From: Escherichia phage vB_EcoM_G2248
DNA length: 64,000 bases
Strand: one strand, 5' to 3'
Sequence record: MK327932.1
The translations under genes and the position numbers were made by a program. This document shows positions 6,423 to 54,345 of the stretch, one piece after another (within the stretch, counting starts at the first letter, position 1; each line of letters begins with the position of its first letter). The notes beneath the pieces were generated by a model. The model made no database searches, had not been told where the DNA came from, and saw only the letters and a list, made by a program, of their open reading frames with translations.

Positions 6423-6985
6423 GCGTTAAATGACTTTTGGATCTCTTTCAGTTCAGCTACTTTATCGGCGCTATATTTTGCTTGATGTTCCATGCGCTTA
6501 AGCTCACCTTTGATATAGGTTTCTAGCTTAGGTTTATTCTCAATCAGAAAATCTTTCAGGTCATCGGCATTTTTAAAGTATAGCTGATTATCAAAGCTAA
6601 AATCTTCCAGCGTCAATGATACCAAAGAAGACTTCGCAAACAAGTTAATCAGATCTTCCAGAGATTCTTCTTTCTTAATTGGTTTCATTTCTTCAAACTG
6701 CTTTTTAGTGATGCGTTTAAAGTATTTTCGCTCGTTTGCAGCAATCAGAACAGATGCACCTTCATACTCATGAGTTTCTACCAGATACACACGCCCCATC
6801 GCATCAACAGTGAGAACTTTAAAGCCGTTACAAAGCACGTCATACAAGAACTTATTATGTTGCGGACATCGTTTGATAAATTCTGCGACTGTTTCTGCAC
6901 TACGGAAAGTATAGTAACGACCTCGTTCAAAAACAGCGTCATTGGGTGACTTAACCGAATATACTTTGTATGTTTTCTGTACCAT
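6419..6985 (-). CDS. hypothetical protein, paralog of 5184..6362
   Basis: Shares NERKYFKRITKKQFEEM and GFKVLTVD motifs; start placed at ATG 6985 behind RBS GAGGATTATATT. Confidence 0.55.
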   Translation of the reverse strand: MVQKTYKVYSVKSPNDAVFERGRYYTFRSAETVAEFIKRCPQHNKFLYDVLCNGFKVLTVDAMGRVYLVETHEYEGASVLIAANERKYFKRITKKQFEEMKPIKKEESLEDLINLFAKSSLVSLTLEDFSFDNQLYFKNADDLKDFLIENKPKLETYIKGELKRMEHQAKYSADKVAELKEIQKSFNA

Positions 6986-6999
6986 AATATAATCCTCTA

Positions 7000-7272
7000 T
7001 CATTTCACTAATTGAACAGCACGGAACAGAATGCGGTCACACGGAAGCAGCATAAATTCCCAACGCGGATCAAAGTCTTTAGCGGTATATGTTTTCCCAT
7101 CAACCGAGATTTCACTTACATAACCAATAGGTGACACTTTAAGAACAGTAAATCCATTCTTGATGACTTCGTAGGTATCTTTCAATCCTTCGTAGTCATC
7201 CTCTAGGAAGTCTTTACGTGCTTGCTCAGATTTAAAAACATAGGCCACACCGGATTTAAACATCTTACGCAT
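7000..7272 (-). CDS. hypothetical protein, single copy of the paralog domain
   Basis: 90 aa with GFTVLKVSPIGYV motif; RBS AAGGAGAATCAACA before ATG 7272. Confidence 0.5.
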   Translation of the reverse strand: MRKMFKSGVAYVFKSEQARKDFLEDDYEGLKDTYEVIKNGFTVLKVSPIGYVSEISVDGKTYTAKDFDPRWEFMLLPCDRILFRAVQLVK

Positions 7273-7296
7273 TGTTGATTCTCCTTCTTGATTAGA

Positions 7297-7332
7297 TGGG
7301 AGTATTTTACTACTCCCATTTCATGTTGTCAA
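7297..7332 (-). promoter_or_regulatory. PeSL-like early promoter with palindrome GGGAGTAGTAAAATACTCCC
   Basis: TTGACA at 7332..7327, -10 TAAAAT, palindrome spans the -10. Confidence 0.5.
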
Positions 7333-8123: not shown

Positions 8124-8936
8124 TCAATCTACGTTAGTTACATAAACTTCTTGCGTATCAGAAGACTTACCACCTGAACGATCTAGGCAATAGGTCTTAT
8201 TCAACAGGACGCAGTTTAAATCATTCCGCTTGATAAAGTCAAGGAGATGATCATTTACCTTTCCCTTATGATGCGTGACATTACTGATACCAAACTGAAA
8301 ACCACGCGCCATAATCGATTCTACCCACTGATAGAATTTAATCTCTTCCTCGTCACTCCAGAACTTATTATATTCCGCAGAAGTGATAAGGTACGGCGGG
8401 TCCAAATAAACGAAATCACCTGGCAAGATCTCGATCTCGTCATAGCGACCAGACGTAAAACTGATTCGACCGTCTTTGTTTTCTTCCTTAAAATTCAGGA
8501 CACGCTCTACCGCGTTTTCGTTAAAAGTCCGGCGACCAAAATTAGCATTAAATTCTCCCTTCCTGTTATGGCGGTTAATGTTGCTAAAACTGTGCTGAAT
8601 CAGAACAAACAGAGATAGCGGATCTGGATTCTCATTATACTTCTTGCGGAATGCCATATAAGAATCTTTATCATCACGAGACAAACCATTCTCGGCAATA
8701 ATCAGCTTGATCGTAGAAACCGGATCAGGACACTCGTCAATCGCTTTGTACGCGTCAATTAAGCGGTGATCATAGTCATTAGCCAGAACACCCCCTTCGA
8801 CGTACAGAGACACGCTCAAGCCACCACAAAAGGCATCAACAAAGCGGTTATAGTGCTTAGGGAAATACTTACTAACACTTGGCAATAACTTTTCCTTATT
8901 GCCAGTATAGGGAATTAAACCTAATGCTTTCTTCAT
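8124..8936 (-). CDS. dam: DNA adenine methyltransferase (Dam family)
   Basis: NRFVDAFCGGLSVSL (motif I), DFVYLDPPY (motif IV), YNKFWSDEEE; close match to T4 Dam. Confidence 0.85.
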   Translation of the reverse strand: MKKALGLIPYTGNKEKLLPSVSKYFPKHYNRFVDAFCGGLSVSLYVEGGVLANDYDHRLIDAYKAIDECPDPVSTIKLIIAENGLSRDDKDSYMAFRKKYNENPDPLSLFVLIQHSFSNINRHNRKGEFNANFGRRTFNENAVERVLNFKEENKDGRISFTSGRYDEIEILPGDFVYLDPPYLITSAEYNKFWSDEEEIKFYQWVESIMARGFQFGISNVTHHKGKVNDHLLDFIKRNDLNCVLLNKTYCLDRSGGKSSDTQEVYVTNVD

Positions 8937-13280: not shown

Positions 13281-13308
13281 ATTATACGGGGATTTCTCCC
13301 CGTGTCAA
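13281..13308 (-). promoter_or_regulatory. PeSL-like early promoter (TTGACA, spacer hairpin CGGGGAGAAATCCCCG, TATAAT)
   Basis: Perfect hexamers 16 nt apart; spacer is the recurrent GGGGAGAAATCCCC hairpin. Confidence 0.6.
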
Positions 13309-43400: not shown

Positions 43401-43518
43401 TGACCAGTCGGCGGTAACATTCTCTATGTTCCGTGAACTTGTAGATAAACGGTTGAAGGATAATATAGGAAATCCACGAGACCCGAAGAATCCGACACAG
43501 AGGAAAATTAATGGCTAA
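40432..43518 (+). CDS. 7: baseplate wedge initiator gp7
   Basis: 1028 aa, synteny and size (T4 gp7 about 1030 aa). Confidence 0.85.
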   Translation: MIKAPSVTSLTIEKLSANQAYITWDDVGENFFYFVELAETRTRDGEIIPVDELSWVNLGYTADQNWFEDKNLFPEYYYKFRVAVAAEGFEQSKWIETEEFQTFKTNAYNFSMMREFNLANEFVKQKFTYDNRDYIKFNTDLIQASLMQEDFVFSPEYANITNISNKIIVDENFHEIQDHIEKVCIDINRTMLAEMNGVLYLFERFQPIVKVSNDKGQSWKAYKAFNDRVGNPVSRTCVYQSKTTTYVLGYDRIFYGRQARDTRWSADDVRFSDDTITFAKVGDENDLGFDVEVFGVFSRLTGDTTKYAEAMACSDDYLWVGAKDVIRRIRLKNTPVDTVQGSPTFGEKIFDPDVIRVTGNDKAVIQKMDVIDGKLLVFVTGEVKQRYQDPTKPENVVPSDDAGVYLIGSDGLSFQRVFGNTPQEREYIHHGFSNMSTNGDEVFISHYNHHFESILPDPETAAKYELSEAVKYSQEPTYLTDKKIHQTTFRASYDDLRIWELGPQAYYNEADYTWMRRNGVRVWITNDNRPLVVYPEVVYTQEVDTSGILDKNRINREVYDKGTVTCYLNNVKFEGFKQYASGVMFHKNTGEIIGFYQFNYRVRDQVGVYWKPTNVAFVAELQNQVREVPWVPVHYDREQDPDLRPLLNKMTPDSFLLENENFRKFSEYYLQFLSDGSGTYYNKLKNLIKNKYPREQDAYEYLWSEMNKRNIYADKNKRDAVVRFFESRKSDFYSTKGVEASYKFLFKLLYNEDVEIEVESQAGLEYDIVVSSTNIDEDIVGRTIYTPTGRANVTYLEREYEGGRLRWRVTIHNLIGRFEEGQVIKSEKTAFEGMILVGVRGKELLSSSIDYINRSRSQYTMKIKSALPVSRYANDVMRFVHPVGFGFIGVTLLTMFINSGLSMRHVETIIQSLKNYKFDSGLPSVYPDRVADLDVDGNIKIDPLTGKPLYLTSPTIGEEFPVPPEYDQENSELFHGLKASERRFAMSPLFDQSAVTFSMFRELVDKRLKDNIGNPRDPKNPTQRKING

Positions 43519-44506
43519 TGAAAATAGTGTGATCTATCGCTCAATCATTACTAGCAAATTCAGAACAGAAAAACTTCTGAACTTCTATAATTCTGTAGGC
43601 GATGGAGCAAATCAAATTACAATTTATGGAACGTTTGGACGTTCGGAGCCGTGGTCAGAAAACGAAAAAGAGGTGGGCTTTGCCCCACCTTATCCGACCG
43701 ATTCAACGGCTGGTGTTGTTGACGTGTGGACCCATATGATGGGGGCGGTTAAGATTAACAAATCACTTCTTGATGCGGTTATCCCTCGTAAAGATTGGGG
43801 TGATACCGGACAGGATAACCCGCGCACGTTCTTTATCAATGACATTGTTGTCGTAAACTCAGCACCATATAACCGAACTGATGTTGGTAGCGGCTGGATG
43901 GTGTATCGCGTAACCGATGTTCCTGATCGCGGTTACTGCTCGATTTCAAGCATTGACGCTAAAGTAGAGTGTTTGAAGTTGGGCGGAAAGTGGACCCCCA
44001 CTCATGAATCAATTGCGCCACCTGTAGGAAAGGGCGATTCTATTGATATGGGTGATGGGTATCGTTGGGAATATCTGTACACAATTCCACCTGATGCGGC
44101 GATCAACCGTTGCACCAATGAACATATTGTTGTACCGTTCCCCGATGAACTGCGACAAGATCCGGCGCGTTGGGGCTATGACAATGTGATCACCTGGTAT
44201 AATGACTATAATCTGCTTTATCGGCTGAAAGTAGTAACTTTGCGTTTTCAGGCTTATATGGACTCTGCGCAATTCCCAACTACCGCGTTAGTGGGTAATA
44301 CTGGTTTCCGTCAGTTAAGCATTATCCTTAACCCATTGGAAAAGAAAGCACGCCCTAGCGATCCAGACGTTAAAGCGGTCAAAGATAAGTACCGACCGCA
44401 AGACTTAGAGCCACACTCAGGCGAAATGATCTACATGGAAAACCGACAACCTATCGTTCGGTCATTAGATCAAACAGAACTTGTTTCTGTATTGTTTGAG
44501 TTCTAA
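43511..44506 (+). CDS. 8: baseplate wedge protein gp8
   Basis: 331 aa, synteny and size. Confidence 0.8.
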   Translation: MANENSVIYRSIITSKFRTEKLLNFYNSVGDGANQITIYGTFGRSEPWSENEKEVGFAPPYPTDSTAGVVDVWTHMMGAVKINKSLLDAVIPRKDWGDTGQDNPRTFFINDIVVVNSAPYNRTDVGSGWMVYRVTDVPDRGYCSISSIDAKVECLKLGGKWTPTHESIAPPVGKGDSIDMGDGYRWEYLYTIPPDAAINRCTNEHIVVPFPDELRQDPARWGYDNVITWYNDYNLLYRLKVVTLRFQAYMDSAQFPTTALVGNTGFRQLSIILNPLEKKARPSDPDVKAVKDKYRPQDLEPHSGEMIYMENRQPIVRSLDQTELVSVLFEF

Positions 44507-44521
44507 GTGTATGATTTTAAA

Positions 44522-44548
44522 AGCCAATTCGAGAGAGTTGGCTTTTTC
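44522..44548 (+). terminator. rho-independent terminator after gene 8
   Basis: Hairpin AGCCAATTCGAGAGAGTTGGCT followed by TTTTT. Confidence 0.65.
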
Positions 44549-44559
44549 CATTTTTGGTG

Positions 44560-44587
44560 TTGACAATCTTATTTGGTAAGGTATAAT
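44560..44587 (+). promoter_or_regulatory. near-consensus sigma70 early promoter (TTGACA, 16-nt spacer, TATAAT)
   Basis: TTGACA at 44560..44565 and TATAAT at 44582..44587; RBS GGAGGA before ATG 44617. Confidence 0.7.
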
Positions 44588-44616
44588 ACACACATCTAAA
44601 CAACGGAGGATAAATT

Positions 44617-44874
44617 ATGGCACGTCGTAAATTTACAGATAATTGTGAAGCAATTCAGGTATCCCCTTGCGGTTGGGATGTGATCGCGAACGGTGAAAAG
44701 ATTGGAGAGATCATCGATCATACTCATTCATCACTAGCCGATTACACCGATGAACTATGGGAGGGTATCAACTTCATGAATGACACTAAACGATTCAAGA
44801 CTATCGACGAAGCTATCTATTTTGTGTATAATCCAACTTTCGGTATGTGGGGAACTAGAAAATGGCACGCGTAA
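44617..44874 (+). CDS. small hypothetical protein (cassette ORF 1)
   Basis: 85 aa, RBS GGAGGA. Confidence 0.5.
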   Translation: MARRKFTDNCEAIQVSPCGWDVIANGEKIGEIIDHTHSSLADYTDELWEGINFMNDTKRFKTIDEAIYFVYNPTFGMWGTRKWHA

Positions 44875-45188
44875 ATATTAAACTGCATTATACAATGGGT
44901 AAACCAAAACATCCAATGCATAAAGTGTTTTGGGGCTTGCATCTTCAAGAAAAATGGCATGATAACTATTGGTTTTGTGACCATGATAAGAAGTGGCATT
45001 CTCAAGATGAAGTTAATGCGATGATGGAACAGGGTATCAAATTTAATTACTCTAATTATGACCATAGCATTACTTGTATTCGAAAATTGAAACGGTTTAT
45101 TCGAAAGAATCCGCAATTTAAAAACTTTGTGTTCTTTATGTCTCATGTTTATTTGGGGCATAGCGTTACCGTAACAGCAAAAGGTTAA
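44862..45188 (+). CDS. small His/Trp-rich hypothetical protein (cassette ORF 2)
   Basis: 108 aa, start overlaps the upstream ORF. Confidence 0.45.
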   Translation: MARVNIKLHYTMGKPKHPMHKVFWGLHLQEKWHDNYWFCDHDKKWHSQDEVNAMMEQGIKFNYSNYDHSITCIRKLKRFIRKNPQFKNFVFFMSHVYLGHSVTVTAKG

Positions 45189-45191
45189 ATA

Positions 45192-46031
45192 ATGGCACGA
45201 CTTTCTAAACAAGAGCAAAAATTACACGATCGGGCGATGGAGTTGATTAATTCAGATCGTCCATTGACATTTGAAGAAAAAGAATTTTGCTATAACAACT
45301 ATCATGGCGATGGACTAGGTGGTTCCGGTGCATTCTTTACCCCAGAATGGCTTGCCTGGGATTTTACCATTGATGCATATTGCACCGGAAAAGTATTAGA
45401 TCTTTGTGCGGGGATCGGTCGCTTATCTTTTTGTATGTTACATCGTTGTAAGCCAGAAAAGATCGTATGCGTCGAACTCAATCCAGAATTTGCGCGGATC
45501 GGCAAGCGACTATTACCGGAGGCAGAATGGATCACCAGCGATGTATTCGAATTTGAGTCAAACGAGAAATTCGATGTTGTAATTAGCAATCCACCTTTCG
45601 GGAAAATCAATACTACCAACACAAAGGATGTATTTGAATATACTGGCGGTGAGTTTGAATTTAAAGTTATGACGTTAGGCCAGAAGTTTGCCGATGTAGG
45701 TTACTTTATTGTTCCTTCTAGTTCCGCTGGTTTTGCATATTCCGGCAGACCTTATTATGATGAATCAGTGAAGTCTAATAAATATCTAAAATGGAGCAAA
45801 CAAACTGGTTTGGTGACTTATGCCGGATGTGGGATCGATACATCAGTCTATCGCGATGAATGGCATAATACCAACGTTTTAACAGAAGTGGTTGAGGTTC
45901 GGTATTACGAGAAAGAAGCCGTAGAAGCGCCTAAATCGCGTCCTAACGAACAGATAGAAGAAAGTAAGGAGATTACCTTACCGGAACAAGAAACAGCGTC
46001 TGGGACGCTCTCAGACTTGTTTGACATTTAA
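45192..46031 (+). CDS. gamma-class N6-adenine methyltransferase (M.TaqI/HsdM-like motifs)
   Basis: FFTPEWLAWDF (motif X-like), VLDLCAGIGRLS (motif I), VVISNPPFG (motif IV), in that order. Confidence 0.65.
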   Translation: MARLSKQEQKLHDRAMELINSDRPLTFEEKEFCYNNYHGDGLGGSGAFFTPEWLAWDFTIDAYCTGKVLDLCAGIGRLSFCMLHRCKPEKIVCVELNPEFARIGKRLLPEAEWITSDVFEFESNEKFDVVISNPPFGKINTTNTKDVFEYTGGEFEFKVMTLGQKFADVGYFIVPSSSAGFAYSGRPYYDESVKSNKYLKWSKQTGLVTYAGCGIDTSVYRDEWHNTNVLTEVVEVRYYEKEAVEAPKSRPNEQIEESKEITLPEQETASGTLSDLFDI

Positions 46032-46038
46032 TTATAAT

Positions 46039-46061
46039 CCGTCCTCGTGGGCGGCTTTTTT
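46039..46061 (+). terminator. rho-independent terminator after the methyltransferase gene
   Basis: Hairpin CCGTCCTCGTGGGCGG followed by TTTTTT. Confidence 0.6.
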
Positions 46062-46071
46062 GTATGTATTT

Positions 46072-46079
46072 TATAAATA
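46072..46079 (+). promoter_or_regulatory. late promoter TATAAATA for gene 9
   Basis: Exact TATAAATA 28 nt upstream of ATG 46107. Confidence 0.6.
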
Positions 46080-46106
46080 ATACATCATAACACGAGGAAT
46101 TAAACA

Positions 46107-46961
46107 ATGGCACAAGTTCCAAAGAAAAGAATAGACACAGGTACGGTCGGCAATCCATCGACTGGCGATATATTATATGATGGCGGTAATAAAATTAACG
46201 ATAACTTTGATTCAATATATGACGCATTTGCTGATCAACGTCTAAAAGAGATTGATCATGGTGCTGGTCGAATGGTTATTCATGCCACTGGATACTATCA
46301 GAAACACCCACGACAAAGCTATGCAGGATCGGCGGTAGAGATTGGTAGTCTGCATGATATTGACACAACTCAAGGCGCATTAATAGCAATTCTTCCTAAA
46401 GCTAAAGTTGGTGAGGGTGTTGTGTTCATAAATAGTAACGGTAGCTTTTCGGCAACAACACCACTAAACATTAGAACTCAAGCAGGAGATTCTATTAGCG
46501 GGTATTCAGGTGACGCGGTAATAACTCAACCTTTCTCAAAAGTCACCGTCTGGTGTACTGCCGTCGAAGGTAGTAGAGTTACCTGGCGGCTGGGCATCGA
46601 AAGTATGTTTGCCGACACAACCACACCACTAGATAGGACCGTTAATGTAACTGGAGTTGCAACCAACGTTGCTATTGCAGCAAAAACAGAATATGTATCA
46701 ATTAAACTATTAACAACCGCTAGCAATACGACGGGTTCAAAAATGCGCTCAAGCGAAACTCTATTGATGATTGATGCCAGAGCCGGAAAAGTTTACGCGA
46801 CAGAATATGCGGTTTTACAGAAAACAGAAGACGAATTATACACGGTTCGTTATTTCATTGGTTCCGGCGATAAAGTATATGCAGAGTATAAGGCTACTGG
46901 CGAAAATATTCGTTTAGCAGTTAAAGCCACAGACACTATTAAAATCGGGGTTGCTACATGA
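46107..46961 (+). CDS. 9: baseplate wedge / long tail fiber socket protein gp9
   Basis: N-terminus PKKRIDTGTVGNPSTGDILYDGGNKINDNFDSIYDAF closely resembles T4 gp9. Confidence 0.9.
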   Translation: MAQVPKKRIDTGTVGNPSTGDILYDGGNKINDNFDSIYDAFADQRLKEIDHGAGRMVIHATGYYQKHPRQSYAGSAVEIGSLHDIDTTQGALIAILPKAKVGEGVVFINSNGSFSATTPLNIRTQAGDSISGYSGDAVITQPFSKVTVWCTAVEGSRVTWRLGIESMFADTTTPLDRTVNVTGVATNVAIAAKTEYVSIKLLTTASNTTGSKMRSSETLLMIDARAGKVYATEYAVLQKTEDELYTVRYFIGSGDKVYAEYKATGENIRLAVKATDTIKIGVAT

Positions 46962-53604: not shown

Positions 53605-54345
53605 ATGTTTAACAACACTCTTTTTGCTCGCCTTGAATCGCAAAAGGATTATGAGAATACACGACAAACAGAGATTCTTAATCCTTATGTGAACTTTCAC
53701 AAATATACAAATACTCAGACGTTAGCCGACGTTATGGTCGCCGAAGCTATTCAGATGCGAGGTGTAGAATTATATTACATCCCTCGTGAATTTGTCAAAC
53801 CAGATATGATATTTGGTGAGGATGTTCAAAGCAAATTTACTAAAGCATGGAAATTTGCGGCTTATATTAACTCATTTGATGGGTATGAAGGAGCGGGTAA
53901 CTTCTTCTCTAGTTTCGGTTATCAAGCCAATGATGAACTAACTTTTACGGTTAACCCCAACCTATTCAAGCATCAAGTAGATGATCAAGAGCCAAAATCA
54001 GGTGACTTGATTTATATTCCAATGAGTAATGATTTATTTGAAATCTCATATGTAGAGCCATATCAGCCGTTTTTTCAGGCTGGCAAAAATGCCATGCGTA
54101 AAATTATTGCAGAGAAATTCGTGTATAGCGGCGAGGAATTGCGACCAGAATTACAACGCAATGAGGGAATTAATGTTGATGAGTTTGCGGATCTGGACCT
54201 TGCACCGATCACTAATCTGGACGGATTAACAGATATCAACTTAGAACAGTACAAAGAAGATAAGCAATTCAGAAGCGAAGGACAAGATTTTATTGACCCG
54301 TTTGATCCTATTAATGGCAAGGGTTCACCTTTTGCTAATTTTTGA
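53605..54345 (+). CDS. 14: neck protein gp14
   Basis: 246 aa, synteny and size. Confidence 0.8.

Follow-up and report, generated by a model that had tools for sequence, protein, structure and literature searches.

In Escherichia phage vB_EcoM_G2248 (sequence record MK327932.1), a 1.6-kilobase (kb) cassette lies between baseplate genes 8 and 9, and the last of its three open reading frames (ORFs) encodes an adenine methyltransferase whose C-terminus resembles that of the phage DNA polymerase gp43. The whole stretch of 64,000 nucleotides (nt) that was analysed is referred to here as the window. A search with 3.7 kb around the cassette matched 65 phage records. The 57 with a query coverage of 80% or more (92-98% identity) are all RB49-like phages of the genus Krischvirus, to which the source of the window belongs. 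Gene 8 (43511..44506, plus strand; Pfam Phage-Gp8, expectation value (E) 1.8e-143; PHROG 977) is the upstream late gene and encodes a baseplate wedge subunit, and gene 9 (46107..46961, plus strand; Pfam T4_gp9_10_N, E 5.8e-41) is the downstream late gene, for the baseplate wedge and tail-fibre connector. In the T4-like relatives compared, namely a Tequatrovirus (RB6), an RB43-like Klebsiella phage and a Tulanevirus, the two genes adjoin directly and only 9-64 nt separate them. Homologues of gp8 occur in 1,477 phage records, of which just 58 are Krischvirus-like, and the cassette is kept in all of the approximately 58 Krischvirus records. It consists, in order, of a terminator, a sigma70 promoter, three ORFs of 85, 108 and 279 amino acids (aa) at 44617-44874, 44862-45188 and 45192-46031 (all on the plus strand), a second terminator and a late promoter; a preliminary description made from the letters alone had listed these elements, and each was found where it had been placed. 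The methyltransferase is an orphan, as had been proposed: the flanks hold baseplate genes 7, 8, 9 and 10, and no restriction endonuclease was found there or elsewhere in the window. A D12-class Dam is encoded separately at 8124-8936 on the minus strand (Pfam E 1.6e-29). The composition of the cassette (guanine plus cytosine (GC) content 0.35-0.42, against 0.38-0.49 in the flanks) shows no anomaly hinting at recent import, and no structured RNA was detected in the region, the sole Rfam match reaching 24 bits against a gathering score of 80. A 133-aa ORF on the minus strand (44817-45218) was taken as spurious because it lies wholly inside the coding region of the opposite strand.

The stem-loop terminator that opens the cassette (44519..44556, plus strand) has a 12-base-pair stem (44519-44546), a GAGA-type loop and a T-run. 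It folds at -15.6 kcal/mol (z-score -4.67), none of 200 shuffled sequences folds equally well, and it is kept in five Krischvirus variants. The sigma70 early promoter TTGACA-N16-TATAAT (44560..44587, plus strand) follows, matching the consensus at 12 of 12 positions; it is the sole perfect match on the plus strand, and by our own estimate about 0.02-0.05 perfect sites would be expected by chance in the whole window. Its hexamers and spacing are invariant across the five variants, with differing spacer sequences, and GGAGG precedes the ATG of ORF1. The unit is closed before gene 9 by an intrinsic terminator (46039..46061, plus strand; stem 46039-46054 and T-run; -10.0 kcal/mol, z-score -2.5), behind which lies the T4-type late promoter TATAAATA of gene 9 (46072..46079, plus strand). 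The second terminator and TATAAATA are kept in the four Krischvirus variants where the region was recovered, and the distant relative L101 also has TATAAATA. The RefSeq record of phage GEC-3S already marks both terminators, the promoter and its -35 and -10 boxes at the 8/9 junction, and labels the third ORF DNA methyltransferase.

This arrangement fits the published promoter-early stem-loop (PeSL) cassettes of RB49 and phi1, which likewise join a near-perfect TTGACA-N16/17-TATAAT promoter to an intergenic stem-loop with genes of unassigned function downstream (PMC2839356, PMC4122927). The near-consensus sigma70 promoter, the stable intergenic stem-loop, the Shine-Dalgarno sequence at the 3' end and the uncharacterised ORF directly downstream are all present, and the position of the stem-loop upstream of the -35 box places the cassette in a subclass defined in PMC2839356. 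In contrast to the frequent poly-G/poly-C type, the stem-loop here is A/U-flanked, and the promoter is predicted from sequence; in experiments, other PeSLs have worked as strong promoters and as terminators (PMC2839356). RB49 and phi1 have about 50 PeSLs each, a few of them inside virion modules, and the authors assign them the task of keeping early ORFs insulated from the late genes of the virion; neither the 8/9 junction nor a methyltransferase is mentioned in the two papers (PMC2839356, PMC4122927). With the GEC-3S annotation and the fit to the published PeSLs, the cassette itself counts as an already known kind of object. In addition, four more perfect sigma70 promoters start at 13308, 10557, 5187 and 2683 on the minus strand, in the early part of the window; their number is far above the chance expectation and fits the dense PeSL population of RB49. 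Meanwhile, a perfect TTGACA-N17-TATAAT at 53770-53798 (minus strand) lies antisense within a late structural gene, has no obvious ORF or Shine-Dalgarno sequence downstream, and could be a chance match or an antisense promoter.

The product of the third ORF can be divided into a catalytic core (aa 1-245; 45192..45926), an acidic, disordered linker rich in proline, glutamate and serine (aa 246-271; 45927..46004), and the terminal residues TLSDLFDI followed by the stop codon (46005..46031), which are predicted from their likeness to the end of RB49 gp43 to be a binding motif for the gp45 sliding clamp. In the core the motifs stand in the gamma-class order X, I, IV, namely GAFFTP (aa 46-51; 45327-45344), DLCAGIG (aa 70-76; 45399-45419) and NPPF (aa 133-136; 45588-45599). 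The longer sequences GAFFTPEWLAWDF, DLCAGIGRL and ISNPPFG, to which the preliminary description had pointed, are present, and their core residues are invariant in 38-40 homologues. DNA methyltransferases of the gamma class typically have GxFFTP as motif X. The adenine-N6 catalytic class (NPPF) is well supported. The protein matches phrog_3820 (E 2.9e-115) and has no dedicated Pfam family; its only Pfam matches are the generic MTS, Methyltransf_25 and, just above threshold, Eco57I (27.2 bits against 25.3), while N6_Mtase stays below its cut-off (16.6 bits against 20.4). Among 38 family members, Eco57I matches 16 and N6_Mtase 11. An AlphaFold2 (AF2) model built from 38 homologues has a mean predicted local distance difference test (pLDDT) score of 84, with the core above 90, and its best BFVD matches outside the family are the methyltransferase domains of phage methylase-helicase proteins of approximately 1,000-1,500 aa.

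The methyltransferase ends in ...SGTLSDLFDI and RB49 gp43 in ...ASLTDLFDI, so that the terminal five residues are the same. Among 965 six-frame ORFs of the Krischvirus genome, gp43 and the methyltransferase are the only real proteins with DLF in their last 8 residues; RB49 gp55 ends in SLDQFYEIEN and gp33 in TNTLDI. By homology with T4 and RB69, the gp43 end SLTDLFDI is expected to bind the gp45 sliding clamp, which is encoded outside the window. In the T4 family, the clamp-binding C-termini of gp43, gp55 and gp33 can replace one another and are carried on flexible linkers that diverge between proteins (PMC2988020). The methyltransferase has the same traits, with a gp43-like hydrophobic, acidic extreme C-terminus on a flexible linker that is divergent in sequence and length. 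In the AF2 model, residues 246-279 are disordered apart from a short terminal helix, with a pLDDT of about 40 at 246-271, and homologue tails run 26-57 residues past a conserved tryptophan. Among 15 members of the 90%-identity cluster, variable positions make up 12% of the core and 41% of the linker (aa 241-269), whereas the last 8 residues include none. In the alignment, the lytic-phage homologues carry the C-terminal extension and the enterobacterial prophage copies lack it. At the 3' end of gene 43 (L017, 15793-15803), TTT GAC ATT (F-D-I) also doubles as the -35 element of the downstream early promoter, and the putative clamp-binding tail and a promoter element are encoded there in RB49 by the same bases.

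A survey of 80 related viral loci, in which the other ORFs of the same loci (n=5,472) served as background, suggests that such tails recur in the family. The pattern Q[LAMP][SDN][LI]F was found within the last 14 residues in 30 of the 80 loci and in none of the 5,472 other ORFs, for example as QLSLFDAA, QLDLFGEAA and QADLFGVAA; QL(S/D)LF is the bacterial beta-clamp-binding motif (PMC9690074). The remaining loci comprise 12 T4-like ones with gp43-style tails, 29 without a tail and nine with other ends, most of them looser clamp-like, and tail type follows clamp type across the family. An exhaustive search (50% identity, E <= 1e-30) yielded 188 representatives, of which 144 diverse full-length ones were scored. 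Penta- or hexapeptide clamp-type motifs were present in the last 16 residues of 13-20% of these, compared with 0.4-1% in the background ORFs (p between about 1e-20 and 1e-27; 2.5e-27 for 20% against 1%). With slightly more confidence than doubt, we read these sequences as a widespread methyltransferase family that would be coupled to the replisome through a C-terminal peptide and repeatedly re-tuned to the clamp of its phage, as QL[SD]LF where the phage relies on a bacterial-type beta clamp and as a copy of the gp43 tail where a T4-like phage uses gp45. On a neighbour-joining tree without support values, the 8/9 clade is sister to the tail-less prophage clade and the tailed lineages are spread elsewhere. 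In the high-GC viral contigs L063, L075 and L085, many ORFs end in ...AA through overlapping GCATGA stop/start junctions (translational coupling); because these junctions are common there, the terminal AA of QLSLFDAA-type tails is probably no degradation tag.

The genomic context of the homologues also involves replication genes. The module of L085 that holds the homologue also encodes, a few genes away, a phage DnaN beta clamp, together with a Prim-Pol primase-helicase, an MT-A70 methyltransferase and a helicase; two near-identical contigs represent this one case. In L075 the homologue comes immediately after a DnaB helicase, and in RB43 and Matisse it is situated between helicase gene 41 and primase gene 61. 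Taken together, the replication-module context and the tails point to DNA at the replication fork as the substrate. The prophage homologues sit at the edges of prophages and share no conserved neighbour; the one nuclease on record near them is an HNH gene approximately 5 kb away. Three observations on these neighbourhoods are added. The homologue of Dickeya phage JA13 (L016, 2501-3670) has no clamp tail; its C-terminus is joined instead to an N6_N4 DNA methylase domain that is partial and probably degenerate, and a complete N6_N4 DNA methylase gene follows. The MT-A70 methyltransferase directly upstream of the homologue in L085/L086 (9429-10001) ends in ANDNLDLLGRVA, and the linker of the neighbouring homologue also has ANDN ahead of its clamp motif; the MT-A70 protein may be a second clamp-tethered methyltransferase of the same replication module. 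In L075, the replication module also encodes a GcrA-like cell-cycle regulator (6630-7313), located approximately 3 kb upstream of the methyltransferase with the clamp tail; in Alphaproteobacteria, adenine methylation is read by GcrA.

We consider it likely that the cassette is an insulated PeSL-type early unit whose constant cargo is a small SAM-dependent adenine-N6 methyltransferase of a phage-specific family, tethered to gp45 and acting on nascent phage DNA. The stem-loop at 44519 would halt late transcripts arriving from gene 8, and unmodified host RNA polymerase would read the promoter at 44560 soon after infection. The terminator at 46039 would block read-through, and gene 9 would restart from the late promoter at 46072. 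We infer that TLSDLFDI, as a copy of the polymerase C-terminus, inserts into the hydrophobic pocket of gp45; carried in this way on clamps that are loaded at replication forks or remain after a fork has passed, the enzyme would methylate adenines of freshly synthesised phage DNA. Protection of this DNA from host restriction is most likely the benefit, since Krischvirus cytosines are unmodified and the gene is not found in the relatives with hydroxymethylcytosine. RB49 cytosines are known to be unmodified (PMC4041780), and the methyltransferase gene occurs in 289 phage records, with no T-even type (hydroxymethylcytosine) phage among the matches examined.

Several results weigh against this interpretation. 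High-performance liquid chromatography/mass spectrometry of Krischvirus TB34 gave 'no detectable modified DNA' (PMC13390438), which argues against dense methylation; low-level N6-methyladenine was outside the focus of that study. The 245-aa core shows no evident target-recognition domain. The RB43-type tails resemble their cognate gp43 tails just loosely (methyltransferase/gp43 pairs SLNTLFGDDW/QNLFTFTIE, SLNDLFGDW/SDLFTFTIE and SLSDLFDF/SATFDFRIE) and would amount to partial tracking. Roughly two thirds or more of the diverse representatives have no recognisable clamp motif, and the tail-less members include the enterobacterial prophage copies, Aeromonas CC2 and Sinorhizobium phiM7. Therefore, tethering is not essential to the enzyme; judged from the tails, it is recurrent in the family and not universal. 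Moreover, fold and profile searches, Foldseek against PDB included, return a mixture of RNA and DNA enzymes in which METTL5 and PH1948 score at least as high as TaqI, and TTGACA, in gene 43 the -35 box of a PeSL, falls within the codons of the shared tail.

The mixture of enzymes bears on the preliminary description, which had pointed to gamma-class N6-adenine methyltransferase motifs: the motif order and the adenine-N6 class hold, but fold and profiles alone do not settle whether RNA or DNA is the substrate, and it is the tail and the context that point to DNA. An RNA adenine-N6 methyltransferase (METTL5-like or Erm/KsgA-like) that retunes early translation through host or phage ribosomal, transfer or messenger RNA is unlikely, because it would have no reason to carry sliding-clamp tails varying with clamp type or to be encoded in replication modules, once a few genes from a phage DnaN. 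In addition, the JA13 homologue is joined to a DNA methylase domain, DNA enzymes score nearly as well as the RNA enzymes (TaqI 16.6, BseCI 16.4, HsdM 16.2), and motif X is of the kind typical of DNA enzymes. A protein glutamine methyltransferase of the PrmC/HemK type is highly improbable. Several GenBank records carry the annotation 'release factor glutamine methyltransferase', NPPF/NPPY also occurs in HemK, and PrmC is the best NCBIfam match (E 2.9e-9), but its 36.7 bits are far below the equivalog cut-off of 199, which leaves that annotation unsupported. Neither a grouping of the enzyme with ribosomal RNA or protein methyltransferases nor a universal conservation of the junction with late-only transcription, the two outcomes that the preliminary description had named as contrary to it, was found.

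The other alternatives concern the tail. Over their final 18 nt, gene 43 and the methyltransferase gene agree at 17 positions, TTGACA included; in the RB49 record a -35 signal is marked within the closing codons of gene 43, and PeSLs flank gene 43 and mediate shuffling (PMC2839356). The tail might therefore have been grafted by recombination and not selected, and PeSL-mediated transplantation of the Krischvirus tail is plausible. However, such an origin does not explain why the tail persists. It is invariant beside a linker that varies at 41% of positions; relatives at the 8/9 junction retain hydrophobic, acidic tails (TLDFVDFSEI in one 65% identical, and SLSMFDI) whose codons lack TTGACA; and beta-clamp motifs are found in unrelated lineages. 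A possible relic of a PeSL promoter (TTGACA-N6-TATAAT) after the methyltransferase gene was downgraded, because other Krischvirus genomes have TATAAG where the window has TATAAT past the stop codon. A DLFDI end that is a non-functional by-product of copying the gene 43 end thus seems improbable, and whatever its origin, a gp43-type peptide on a flexible linker should bind gp45, since such peptides are interchangeable (PMC2988020). The protein could also act mainly by occupying the clamp, competing with gp43, gp55 and gp33 for gp45 and modulating replication or the late-transcription switch. This would agree with a tail that is the same as that of gp43, with the few binding sites on gp45 and its second role in activating late transcription (PMC2988020), and with the bacterial toxin SocB, which works by occupying the clamp cleft (PMC9690074). 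Nevertheless, motif I and NPPF are invariant in all 38-40 aligned homologues, so that methyltransferase activity appears to be under selection, and tail-less versions persist in many phages; occupancy as the main role is quite improbable. The gp45-tethered DNA methyltransferase remains the interpretation that we prefer.

The two small ORFs ahead of the methyltransferase are passengers of unassigned function. ORF1 (85 aa; phrog_16603) and ORF2 (108 aa, rich in histidine, cysteine and tryptophan; phrog_12630) have no match in Pfam or NCBIfam. Both were found only in Krischvirus and in rV5/FV3-like phages, where they form an adjoining pair, approximately 70% identical to that of Krischvirus, with no methyltransferase beside it; ORF1 is absent from the 8/9 junction of more distant relatives. 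The ORF2 family has just five clusters among 5.8 billion proteins, and its AF2 model (pLDDT 56.8) is not usable. ORF2 exists as two alleles in Krischvirus, since 19 records show more than 95% identity and the remaining ones 72%, and it is approximately 70% identical to its rV5/FV3-like counterpart, which suggests allelic replacement by exchange between unrelated myoviruses. Three distant metagenomic relatives with 64-67% identical methyltransferases hold the gene between gp8 and gp9, alone in two of them and preceded by an unrelated 154-aa ORF in the third, and in one of these three the layout of terminator, TTGACA-N17-TATAAT, terminator and TATAAATA is the same at the sequence level. Since these relatives keep the methyltransferase without ORF1 and ORF2, the methyltransferase is the constant cargo, the slot behind the promoter is variable, and ORF1 and ORF2 are separable, exchangeable passengers. 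A three-gene module conserved across genera was considered and rejected: the small ORFs upstream of the homologue in RB43 and Matisse are unrelated to ORF1 and ORF2, and the FV3 pair lacks the methyltransferase. The three ORFs do all begin with MAR-, as had been remarked, but this is not meaningful and reflects coincidence or initiation context; 13 of 104 ORFs in the window have MA- starts, the FV3 homologues of ORF1 and ORF2 begin with MSL and MAH, respectively, and the methyltransferase N-terminus MA[KR]L[ST]K is kept across its whole family. Generally, then, the insulated early-promoter unit, the orphan methyltransferase and the separate Dam of the preliminary description stand, and the anti-restriction or self-protection role that it suggested is plausible; the three ORFs do not form one module, and the cassette is not new.

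Two further observations concern methyltransferase records. A third annotated DNA methyltransferase of RB49, RB49p189 (238 aa; RB49 115890-116606; L018 20891-21607, minus strand), has an FPPC-type motif and no Pfam match, and lies outside the window. Cytosine modifications have been reported for Krischvirus SAP and not for the 99.96%-identical TB34 (PMC13390438); RB49p189 may be relevant to these unexplained modifications. Moreover, a protein in the same 90%-identity cluster as the Krischvirus methyltransferase (P0129) was deposited as 'methyltransferase [Bacillus atrophaeus]' on a 5.8-kb contig, which is most likely coliphage contamination of that assembly.

The new part of this locus is the clamp-type C-terminus of the methyltransferase; the cassette itself is not new. 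No description of a clamp-binding adenine methyltransferase of bacteria or phages was found in the open-access literature, and a 2022 review of sliding clamps names only Dnmt1-PCNA among clamp-bound methyltransferases (PMC9690074). Should the tail bind the clamp, the enzyme would, judged by the open-access literature searched, have no described precedent among bacteria and phages as a DNA methyltransferase tethered to the replisome. It would be a prokaryotic and viral counterpart of DNMT1-PCNA, with replication-coupled adenine methylation of nascent phage DNA, and would explain how methylation could keep pace with DNA synthesis, ahead of host restriction, in a phage with unmodified cytosines. 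The gp45 and beta-clamp "toolbelts" would likewise gain a new kind of client, and the tail could potentially be used as a portable tag that recruits enzymes to replication forks. For annotation, the label 'release factor glutamine methyltransferase' in several records is corrected, and ORF1 and ORF2 can be listed as independent passengers.

Several known systems can be compared with the cassette and its methyltransferase. The clamp-binding C-termini of gp43, gp55 and gp33 share with it the short hydrophobic, acidic extreme C-terminus on a divergent flexible linker; the carrier here is a methyltransferase, which is not among the gp45 ligands listed in PMC2988020, and binding is predicted. The preliminary description had called the cassette moron-type. 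It does bring a promoter and a terminator of its own and does separate two genes that adjoin in relatives, but the phage is virulent and the unit is fixed across the genus, and in contrast to the morons of temperate phages it is presumably expressed early in lytic growth and not from a prophage. T4 Dam and other orphan phage adenine methyltransferases are likewise phage-encoded N6-adenine enzymes without a nuclease partner; however, T4 Dam is of the D12/alpha class, targets GATC and has no clamp tail, whereas the motifs of the enzyme in the window follow the gamma-type order and no Pfam family is dedicated to it. A precedent for the proposed function is given by M.EcoGIX and M.BceJIII, orphan adenine methyltransferases of mobile elements that are expressed early on entry, are replication-associated and specific for single-stranded DNA, act at replication intermediates and have a proposed anti-restriction role (PMC7736820). 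Compared by description, these differ in being plasmid-borne and associated with DNA polymerase I, with no described clamp motif (PMC7736820). Finally, the binding of eukaryotic DNMT1 to PCNA through a PCNA-interacting-protein (PIP) box (cited in PMC9690074) likewise brings a DNA methyltransferase to new DNA by a short clamp motif, but DNMT1 is a C5-cytosine maintenance enzyme that uses another clamp, whereas the motif described here stands at the extreme C-terminus of a small adenine-N6 enzyme.

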